64,000 bases of DNA from an uncultured Candidatus Saccharibacteria bacterium (GTDB taxonomy: Bacteria > Patescibacteriota > Doudnabacteria > UBA920), in contig CAZACP010000001.1 in assembly GCA_964483665.1 (NCBI GenBank), positions 141,896 to 205,895 of the forward strand, given 5' to 3'. The translations under genes and the position numbers were made by a program. This document shows positions 1,240-2,854 of this stretch, piece by piece (positions within the stretch are counted from its first letter, which is position 1; the number at the start of each line of letters is the position of its first letter). Under the pieces are notes generated by a model. It ran no database searches. It was not told where the DNA came from and worked only from the letters and a program-made list of their open reading frames with translations.

Positions 1240-1316
1240 TGGCGGGACCGGCGGGGCTCGAACCCGTAACCTCTCACGTGACAGGCGAGTGCTCTAACCA
1301 ATTGAGCTACGGTCCC
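1240..1316 (-). tRNA. tRNA-Asp (anticodon GUC)
   Basis: Minus-strand cloverleaf. Acceptor GGGACCG/CGGTCCC, anticodon stem CTCGC/GTGAG with loop CTGTCAC (GUC), T-loop GGTTCGAGCCC, encoded CCA. Confidence 0.9.
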
Positions 1317-1332
1317 ATAATGTATTTTACTT

Positions 1333-1409
1333 TGGTAGCGGAGAGTGGAATTGCACCACTGACCTTGGGCTTATGAGTCCCACGCTCTAACTAACTGAGC
1401 TACTCCGCC
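1333..1409 (-). tRNA. tRNA-Met (anticodon CAU); elongator Met or possibly Ile2-lysidine type
   Basis: Minus-strand. GGCGGAGTAGCTCAGTTAG... anticodon loop CTCATAA, T-loop GGTGCAATTCC, encoded CCA. Confidence 0.85.
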
Positions 1410-1626
1410 AAAAATACCTTGTATGATATTTAAAAACCTGCGTACAGCAGGAAAAAGCTGTCACGTAAATTTTGTCGCATTCGCAACCACGGATCAACTG
1501 TGATGGGGTAAGGGGCATTGTCCTTAACGTGTGAGGAATAGACTTCTAGTCTATTTTCAAAGGAGTAACGGACAATTGACCCGTGGTTGCGGGACCCGGA
1601 CTCGAACCGGGAACCTTCAGGTTATG

Positions 1627-2400
1627 CTTGCCACTACAATTTTCATTGCTCCCTAAATTTAGGGATTTGGGGTCTGGACTTTCTCTTCACCCTCGTGCAA
1701 TAAACTGATTTTCGCTCATTCCGATTTAAAAACCGGCGTTCACTCAATTCGTTTTTGCTCTTTACGGTGGGGTGCCTACCATTAAGTCTCTACACCTGCC
1801 TTCGTCAAGACTTCGGCAGGCAGGCCTTCTTAATTAAATAAGAAAAGGCTGCTTTCAATCCGAAGTTTTGGCGTAGGATTGGCTCGGGATTACCACCGCC
1901 AGGAGGCTTCCCCGAATTTGATAGGTTTTCATACCGAAGTTACCTTCGGTATAGCCCATTCTGTTATTAGTTCAAACGCATTTCGATAGTCGGCGGATTT
2001 TGGTTTTCTCTGACGCTTGTCAGATTCAACCAGGCTAATCGTACTACCGAACGATATAAAAACATCAAGCGGAAACACATAAAAAATATGAGTTTCTGGA
2101 ATATATACAACCGCAAAATCAAAATCATTAGCTTTATAGGCTTCCCGGCGCATAACGCGTCGGTTTGTCTTGGTTCGACGCACATCCACAAAATAAGATT
2201 TGTATTTGCCGTCGTACCAAGCGCATTTGACTTGCAATTTTACAAGCTTTCCTAACACATCGGCTATTAGGTCATAAGGCATTCGGTCGCCAATGGGCTT
2301 AGAAACACCCCGCCTAATTGCAAAAGCTTTAGAACGGTAGCTTGTTCAGCTATATCCCCTTTCGCTTTCGTTATCATAAGTAGCTAATAACAGGAATTTG
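1627..2400 (-). mobile_element. group I intron (774 nt) inserted in the anticodon loop of tRNA-fMet
   Basis: 5' exon ends in U and the intron ends in G (omega-G). Internal elements resemble group I R/S consensus (GTAGAGACTTAA; AAGAGAAAGTCC). Contains an ORF. Confidence 0.75.
1929..2282 (-). CDS. intron-encoded ORF (117 aa), putative homing endonuclease
   Basis: Entirely inside the tRNA-fMet intron. By analogy to intron-encoded endonucleases in cyanobacterial tRNA-fMet introns. Family not resolved by eye. Confidence 0.55.
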   Translation of the reverse strand: MPYDLIADVLGKLVKLQVKCAWYDGKYKSYFVDVRRTKTNRRVMRREAYKANDFDFAVVYIPETHIFYVFPLDVFISFGSTISLVESDKRQRKPKSADYRNAFELITEWAIPKVTSV

Positions 2401-2532
2401 AGCCTGACGAGCTGCCAATTGCTCTATCCCGCGATATAACTAACCAACATAAATTATATAGAATAATGTCCTTTTTGGCAAGTTTTTTAATATTAGGCCG
2501 GTTGTTGCCGCAGCGCTTAAATATTTTAAGTA

Positions 2533-2621: not shown

Positions 2622-2690
2622 CTAGCGGCGCTTCTTTTTGCCGCCTTTTTTCTTTGCAGTCTTCTTTGCAACTTTTTTCTTCTTAGCCAT
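2622..2690 (-). CDS. tiny lysine-rich basic peptide (22 aa: MAKKKKVAKKTAKKKGGKKKRR)
   Basis: ATG preceded by GGGAGAAAG SD-like sequence. Followed by two strong hairpins. Not in the ORF track (too short). Confidence 0.35.
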   Translation of the reverse strand: MAKKKKVAKKTAKKKGGKKKRR

Positions 2691-2854
2691 TTTGGGCTTT
2701 CTCCCTTGAAAGTACTTAACGAAAATTTTTGGCTAAATACTTTCTTAATTTTCTACTCCCCCAATAATGGGGATTAGTAGTATGGTTTTATTTTCTTTCT
2801 GTTTTTCTACAAAATTTATTTTCGTTTCAGTAAAACTTTTACATTAATTTTATT

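Follow-up and report, generated by a model that had tools for sequence, protein, structure and literature searches.

I-Ssp6803I is a tetrameric homing endonuclease of the PD-(D/E)XK type with a 23-bp pseudo-palindromic target, and its homologues have been described as 'generally encoded in cyanobacteria' (PMC3384342). In Synechocystis sp. PCC 6803, the tRNA-fMet intron is 655 nt long, and the enzyme has 150 amino acids (PMC1995217). Introns between positions 33 and 34 of tRNA-fMet are well known; in the accessible part of the survey by Nakagawa et al. (2026), which covers 4,934 complete genomes, they are classed as IC3, and IC3-type tRNA-fMet introns are reported in other phyla too (PMC13011429). 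That part of the survey places PF11645 genes within tRNA-fMet (CAU) introns in two Cyanobacteriota only, describes only HNH genes in the tRNA introns of Patescibacteria (in tRNA-Asn), with nearly all of these Patescibacteria introns belonging to subgroup IA, and states that standard tRNA finders miss intron-bearing tRNA genes (PMC13011429).

Here, we analyzed a locus within a window of 64,000 nt, this being the whole stretch of DNA under study, from a Saccharibacteria-like (Patescibacteria) host. The locus is like that of I-Ssp6803I in the PF11645 family of the encoded protein, the initiator tRNA host gene, the 33/34 insertion site, and the length of the protein, 149 vs. 150 amino acids. Unlike the I-Ssp6803I locus, it belongs to a host that is not a cyanobacterium, and its endonuclease gene is frameshifted.

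Results

The initiator tRNA gene and its group I intron

On the minus strand of the window, an initiator tRNA gene interrupted by a 774-nt group I intron was mapped by eye. Exon 1 occupies positions 2433..2401 (CGCGGGATAGAGCAATTGGCAGCTCGTCAGGCT), covers tRNA positions 1-33 and ends in CAGGCU, and it is the same in the ortholog L007 and the strain alleles. The intron spans 2400..1627, with boundaries derived from the exons and a core recognized by Rfam, and it is followed by exon 2 at 1626..1584 (CATAACCTGAAGGTTCCCGGTTCGAGTCCGGGTCCCGCAACCA, read by eye), which starts with the CAU anticodon (1626..1624) and runs through the encoded CCA. The joined exon junction of an intron-less gene would read GCTCGTCAGGCT followed directly by CATAACCTGAAGGTT. 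In addition to the CAU anticodon and the encoded CCA, this tRNA-fMet has a C1xA72 mismatch. Since exon 1 ends in U2401 and the intron in G1627, its terminal (omega) G, the insertion lies between tRNA positions 33 and 34. The Rfam group I model (RF00028) scored 64.6 bits at the core (1978..1651), above its gathering score of 50, and model positions 1-253 were all matched; the core strings also agree with those of the IC3 tRNA-fMet introns in the accessible part of Table S5 of PMC13011429. The core is IC3-like, and the intron is predicted to be self-splicing.

Bacterial initiator tRNAs are marked by the CAU anticodon, a 1:72 mismatch, and an anticodon stem whose base consists of three G-C pairs in a row. 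In the window tRNA, read by eye, this stem has two G-C pairs only, as A29-U41 replaces G29-C41, and the anticodon-stem variant CAGGCU or AAGGCU was seen in several related loci. Neither ARAGORN nor the Rfam tRNA model, run over the window, called the intron-bearing tRNA-fMet gene; the miss by ARAGORN is like the case described in PMC13011429.

Around this gene, a consensus scan found a promoter-like site, TTGCCA-17-TATAAT, at 2481..2453 on the minus strand, about 20 nt 5' of the tRNA; it is a pattern match only, with 11/12 consensus positions, and the block is kept in the ortholog L007. Between this site and the PolyA_pol-family gene lies a tiny lysine-rich ORF of about 22 codons (2624-2692, minus strand; MAKKKKVAKKTAKKKGGKKKRR, read by eye), and a similar stretch is present in L007. 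The tRNA-fMet gene heads a tRNA cluster on the minus strand (1240-2433), where it is followed by tRNA-Met(CAU) at 1409..1333 and tRNA-Asp(GUC) at 1316..1240.

Unlike the 655-nt Synechocystis intron, the 774-nt window intron has larger peripheral insertions. One of about 60 nt in a peripheral loop (around 1875..1810, within 1790-1875) is absent from L007, and the window in turn lacks about 68 nt that are inserted after CCCCACCGT in the L007 intron. The peripheral elements of the ribozyme turn over fast, and the core is unchanged.

A frameshifted gene of the I-Ssp6803I family

The initial annotation had pointed to a 117-codon ORF in this intron as a candidate homing endonuclease of unclear family. 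The ORF was recovered with exact coordinates (2282..1929 on the minus strand, from ATG to TGA) and lies, as described, wholly inside the mapped tRNA-fMet intron with its Rfam group I core and in the orientation of the tRNA. Its match to PF11645 (PDDEXK_5), over profile positions 34-137 of 138 with an E value of 5.9e-32 and 111 bits, puts it beyond chance. Upstream, in another frame, an ORF of 36 codons (2377..2267, minus strand) begins with codons 1-22 of the endonuclease, in frame, and continues with 14 out-of-frame codons and a TAA; by itself, it matched PF11645 positions 1-31 with an E value of 0.004. Once the frame was repaired, the 149-residue protein covered PF11645 positions 1-137 of 138 with 152 bits, the family cut-off being 26.1 bits. 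In a phmmer comparison, residues 3-145 of this protein aligned with residues 4-147 of PDB 2OST (I-Ssp6803I) with an E value of 5.4e-51, and the upstream fragment, once joined, aligned with 2OST residues 4-24. A Pfam scan of the ORF and the repaired protein gave PF11645 as the sole significant family, in agreement with the earlier remark that no LAGLIDADG, GIY-YIG, or HNH signature was visible, and an NCBIfam scan of both matched no family.

As judged from the sequence, the 117-codon ORF is the larger piece, codons 33-149, of a 149-codon gene of the I-Ssp6803I (PD-(D/E)XK) family. The suggestion of a compact PD-(D/E)XK enzyme like that of the cyanobacterial tRNA-fMet intron had therefore named the right family, that of I-Ssp6803I (2OST). 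The parallel wording, 'unclear family' or 'something new', did not hold, as sequence search alone returned 2OST with an E value near 5e-51 and a strong PF11645 match. The delimitation of the ORF stood in part: the ORF exists, but it is not the whole gene, because it begins at codon 33 of 149, with a 1-nt deletion upstream. The active-site codons D36, Q49, and K51 are within the 117-codon ORF; E11, together with D8, is in the upstream fragment and thus in a different frame, and no single ORF has all four of E11, D36, Q49, and K51. An uninterrupted frame of about 149-150 codons is absent from the window allele.

The deletion and the sister alleles

When the DNA was aligned, in pairs and as a set, with L007, L094-L097, and L099, all of them intact alleles, the break proved to be a 1-nt deletion, with a T missing between C2312 and G2311 (2312..2311, minus strand). 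The window has GGC-GGGGT where the ortholog has GGCTGGGGT, and the lost T opens the codon for Trp23 (TGG to -GG), a residue at least 90% conserved across the family. The closest relative of the protein, P0001 (149 aa, 95% amino acid identity), is encoded in the Candidatus Saccharibacteria MAG GCA_964484145.1, at a locus syntenic with the window, where ATP synthase genes and a PolyA_pol-family gene are neighbours. Five other assemblies contain the exact 850-nt sequence of tRNA and intron with the deletion (100% identity), and a sixth carried the deletion at 99.4% identity, with no gaps. The assemblies came from different projects and assemblers (ENA k141 and NODE contigs, Logan). The same deletion in six other independent assemblies indicated that this is a real allele and not an assembly artefact.

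Intact 149-aa alleles were present in the same 90%-identity cluster. Intact frames were found in P0001, P0122, P0125, and P0126, and two residues distinguish P0122 from the repaired window protein. The initial annotation had considered that the ORF might be degenerate in related copies; the reverse was found, with intact relatives and a degenerate copy in the window. The closest intact allele, L097, is 99.4% identical, with four substitutions in 850 nt in addition to the T; these substitutions are in codon 56 (GGC vs. TCA) and codon 59 (AAA vs. AAT). Codon 56 (2208-2210) is GGC (Gly) in the frameshifted allele and TCA (Ser) in all the intact alleles and the outgroup, a difference at all three bases; the difference in codon 59 is at 2199.

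Two intron haplotypes, WIN and L005, bear the frameshifted allele, a pattern suggestive of allelic recombination, and the allele therefore segregates in a species-level population. The two haplotypes differ at 1962, 1855, 1836, 1818, and 1809. In the same population as the window, P0124 (L099:517-966) has an intact frame but carries E11K, at a residue invariant in 48 homologs; in this allele, function may have been lost independently a second time. P0126 carries Y130D. The 74-aa P0123 was considered as a second truncated allele and rejected, as the end of its contig cuts it.

Nei-Gojobori analysis of the repaired window gene against L007 gave a dN/dS of 0.087, with a dS of 0.31. By part, against the same ortholog, the values were about 0.165-0.17 for the N-terminal part, which has few sites, and about 0.076-0.09 for the C-terminal part. 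Purifying selection acted on the gene through almost the whole of the divergence between the window and L007. The low dN/dS against an intact ortholog, together with the 99.4% identity of the closest intact allele, indicated that the break is recent.

Overlap of the gene with the ribozyme

The endonuclease gene starts 24 nt past the 5' splice site. RNAalifold, applied to 45 non-identical loci, paired GCU of the exon and CA of the intron with UGGGC, giving 5 core pairs that include the U.G pair at the splice site, and this U.G pair was kept in 45/45 aligned loci. Beyond the core, the segment from the splice site to the gene start pairs with the codons directly 5' of Trp141. The 5' strand of P1 (2404..2384, minus strand) is made of exon GGCU, intron CA, and the extension CUGUUAUUAG at 2393..2384, which in the window pairs with CUAAUAACAG at 1970..1961. 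The 3' strand, with the internal guide sequence UGGGCU (the Trp141-Ala142 codons), is at 1970..1953 on the minus strand, inside the ORF at codons 137-142. RNAalifold recovered only the 5 invariant core pairs, the extension being out of register between loci, and the extension was assessed by a permutation test of cognate vs. non-cognate duplex energies. The cognate mean was -9.3 kcal/mol and the non-cognate mean -4.0 kcal/mol, and 0/2000 permutations reached the cognate mean; the folding energy of a P1 mini-construct of the window was -16.8 kcal/mol. This pairing makes the endonuclease ORF the terminal loop of an extended P1, and the last 12 or so codons of the ORF double as the internal guide sequence and P2. 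As the deletion sits in the loop part, the ribozyme should be unaffected.

Fold, active site, and likely activity

The initial annotation had also proposed a structure prediction of the 117-aa protein. The AF2 model was made for the intact ortholog P0001, 95% identical, standing in for the repaired protein, and it had a pLDDT of 86 and a pTM of 0.82. Its fold matched 2OST as the best hit in the PDB, with a TM score of 0.86, an rmsd of 2.2 Å, and 59% identity. After 2OST, the next-best Foldseek matches were Hjc resolvases and SPARDA DREN domains, at TM scores of 0.42-0.50; these have the core fold in common with the P0001 model but only 12-21% identity, and they serve junction resolution and defence and are not intron-borne. 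The DREN tetramer is said to resemble the I-Ssp6803I tetramer (bioRxiv 10.1101/2025.04.08.647717).

In the P0001 model, helix α1 (residues 3-20) and strand β1 (24-26) are followed by the β-strands bearing D36 and Q49-x-K51. D8, E11, D36, Q49, and K51 are invariant in 48 homologs, and the 2OST chain has Q where the family has the invariant E11; conservation and the general PD-(D/E)XK fold suggest that E11 carries catalytic weight. The 117-aa ORF, which starts at Met33, contains neither helix α1 nor strand β1, D8, or E11, and its product is for this reason probably inactive. The view of the ORF as the enzyme itself was thus replaced by that of the downstream part of a frameshifted gene. Ribosomes that begin at the original start would reach a stop after 36 codons. 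Read by eye, no Shine-Dalgarno-like sequence was evident before either ATG, which makes the expression of any form uncertain. The window allele probably yields no active enzyme.

Relatives and their tRNA context

A protein search returned 628 relatives at E ≤ 1e-5, mostly of 149 aa, and the full-length family members listed have 136-201 aa and start with an MxTKxKGD motif. A scan of genome contigs with a single protein gave 6 loci, and a metagenome scan with an alignment gave 80 loci for the context statistics. Because the metagenome scan relied on N-terminal peptide patterns, it favours intact genes and could not find copies broken in the same way, so the apparent absence of other frameshifted copies is uninformative.

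Both tRNA-fMet exons were present around the ORF in at least 61 of the 85 related loci, which belong to several phyla, and 12 further loci had one exon, the other side being lost to a contig end. The end of exon 1 (..GGCT) was found 16-33 nt 5' of the ORF in 71/85 related loci, and the start of exon 2 (CATAACC...) about 180-250 nt 3' of it in 64/85. Hosts with both exons confirmed include Saccharibacteria (Patescibacteria), Acidobacteriota, and Planctomycetota (Planctomycetales). The source names of the protein relatives add Patescibacteria, cyanobacteria, Nitrospirota, and Bacteroidota, on the basis of names and not of tRNA context. The tRNA-fMet exons were absent from L010, the one Cytophagales locus examined, and were not recognisable in L033, L084, or L089.

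Several loci had other arrangements. In a Candidatus Omnitrophota MAG (L013:1213-1722; JADFYF010000106.1), a family member lies about 215 nt 3' of an uninterrupted tRNA-fMet (Rfam match 1213-1286) with an intact anticodon arm, GGCTCATAACC, and the contig ends within the endonuclease gene; the copy may be free-standing, with its own target next to it. At L069:1250-2259, where no tRNA-fMet exon was found, the family member (1501-1947) is flanked by a partial tmRNA match (1250-1428, 50.5 bits) on one side and a tRNA (2188-2259) on the other; a tmRNA gene may hold an intron here, or the context may be unrelated. Two further loci, L077:1174-1920 and L080:1135-1935, have their group I core (58 and 56 bits with Rfam, respectively) upstream of the endonuclease gene, not downstream, and no tRNA-fMet exon 1 was found before the ORF, which is a different arrangement of intron and ORF or a different host gene. 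At L076:37-1133, two tblastn segments in two frames flank a group I core (437-644) on a contig of 1155 nt; either two intron copies in tandem or a broken gene may underlie this pattern.

Discussion

The window very likely carries a homing endonuclease gene of the I-Ssp6803I family, within a tRNA-fMet group I intron, in the form of an allele that was frameshifted recently and is probably inactive. In its intact 149-aa form, the enzyme, presumably a tetramer like I-Ssp6803I, would cleave a tRNA-fMet gene that lacks the intron, in the region of the anticodon stem-loop, and repair from an intron-bearing copy would then spread the intron. The ribozyme would splice itself out, and the tRNA would stay functional. 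The loss of one T in codon 23 would have given rise to a pseudogene that segregates beside intact alleles, and decay of the endonuclease would be the usual course once the intron is fixed. In the Goddard-Burt cycle, which is a model and not a sequence family, homing endonucleases reportedly go through gain, fixation, and decay. The locus is like the decay phase of this cycle, in that the frameshifted allele and the E11K allele (P0124) stand beside intact ones in one population, with fixation of the intron presumed.

Three alternatives were weighed, and even jointly they appear improbable. The first, which we regard as very unlikely, is that the frameshift is bypassed: a -1 slip near UUA GGC GGG G would yield an active 149-aa enzyme with a W23G-like change, or the 36-aa and 117-aa pieces would assemble in trans. 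The two frames overlap over codons 11-36, and a single -1 slip there would restore the full length; moreover, both halves are otherwise undamaged, with a low dN/dS in each against L007, and the allele is found in many samples and on two haplotypes. However, a low dN/dS is equally expected from a very recent break, and the 99.4% identity of the closest intact allele means that no time has elapsed for constraint to show. By eye, the site has GGGG only, with neither an X XXY YYZ slippery heptamer nor a long homopolymer, and a slip would replace W23, which is at least 90% conserved. In addition, the two-frame arrangement at this site was seen in no other of the 85 loci, L076 aside, in a scan that favours intact genes.

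It is hardly credible, in turn, that translation of the 117-aa ORF from Met33 gives a compact endonuclease in its own right, active without the upstream part. The ORF does retain D36, Q49, and K51 along with every conserved block of the C-terminal part, and gene calling reports it in each of the assemblies; against this, helix α1, strand β1, and the invariant D8 and E11 are missing from it, the listed full-length relatives of 136-201 aa start with MxTKxKGD, and Met33 is Leu in most homologs, which marks the ATG as incidental. Least credible of all is that the organism has an intact gene and that sequencing or assembly went wrong in a G-run: the deletion does adjoin a GGGG run, and intact alleles exist at 99.4% identity, but the same deletion recurs in six other assemblies from different assemblers and projects, the missing base is a T and not a G of the run, and the deletion is linked to the distinct codon-56 variant (GGC vs. 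TCA).

The preferred reading, a recently broken and probably inactive allele, leaves room for the frameshifted allele, with at least 7 contigs and two haplotypes, to be tolerated or even maintained; it could be more than merely decaying. That the allele is alive, through low-level -1 frameshifting, a two-piece enzyme, or a 117-aa protein with a new role, e.g., non-cutting binding to the tRNA-fMet gene or the intron RNA, seems to us a long shot; if true, it would represent a naturally split or attenuated PD-(D/E)XK homing endonuclease. The use of the 117-aa ORF as a reagent specific for the intron-less tRNA-fMet gene, also put forward by the initial annotation, is doubtful, as the window allele is unlikely to give an active enzyme. 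For a tRNA-fMet-specific nuclease, the intact P0122 or P0001 would be preferable to the window ORF.

As the system is already understood, with a crystal structure, the finding changes little, and public annotation already names PF11645-type proteins in Patescibacteria MAGs. Unlike what the accessible part of PMC13011429 reports, the pairing of PF11645 with tRNA-fMet extends here to Patescibacteria, Acidobacteriota, and Planctomycetota. Since that part of the survey has this pairing only in Cyanobacteriota, the window locus represents a new host lineage for a known element, and the I-Ssp6803I-type combination of intron and endonuclease is far more widespread than this literature, as far as it is accessible, suggests. 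With intact, frameshifted, and invariant-residue-mutant alleles side by side, this population offers a clean natural snapshot of homing-endonuclease decay.
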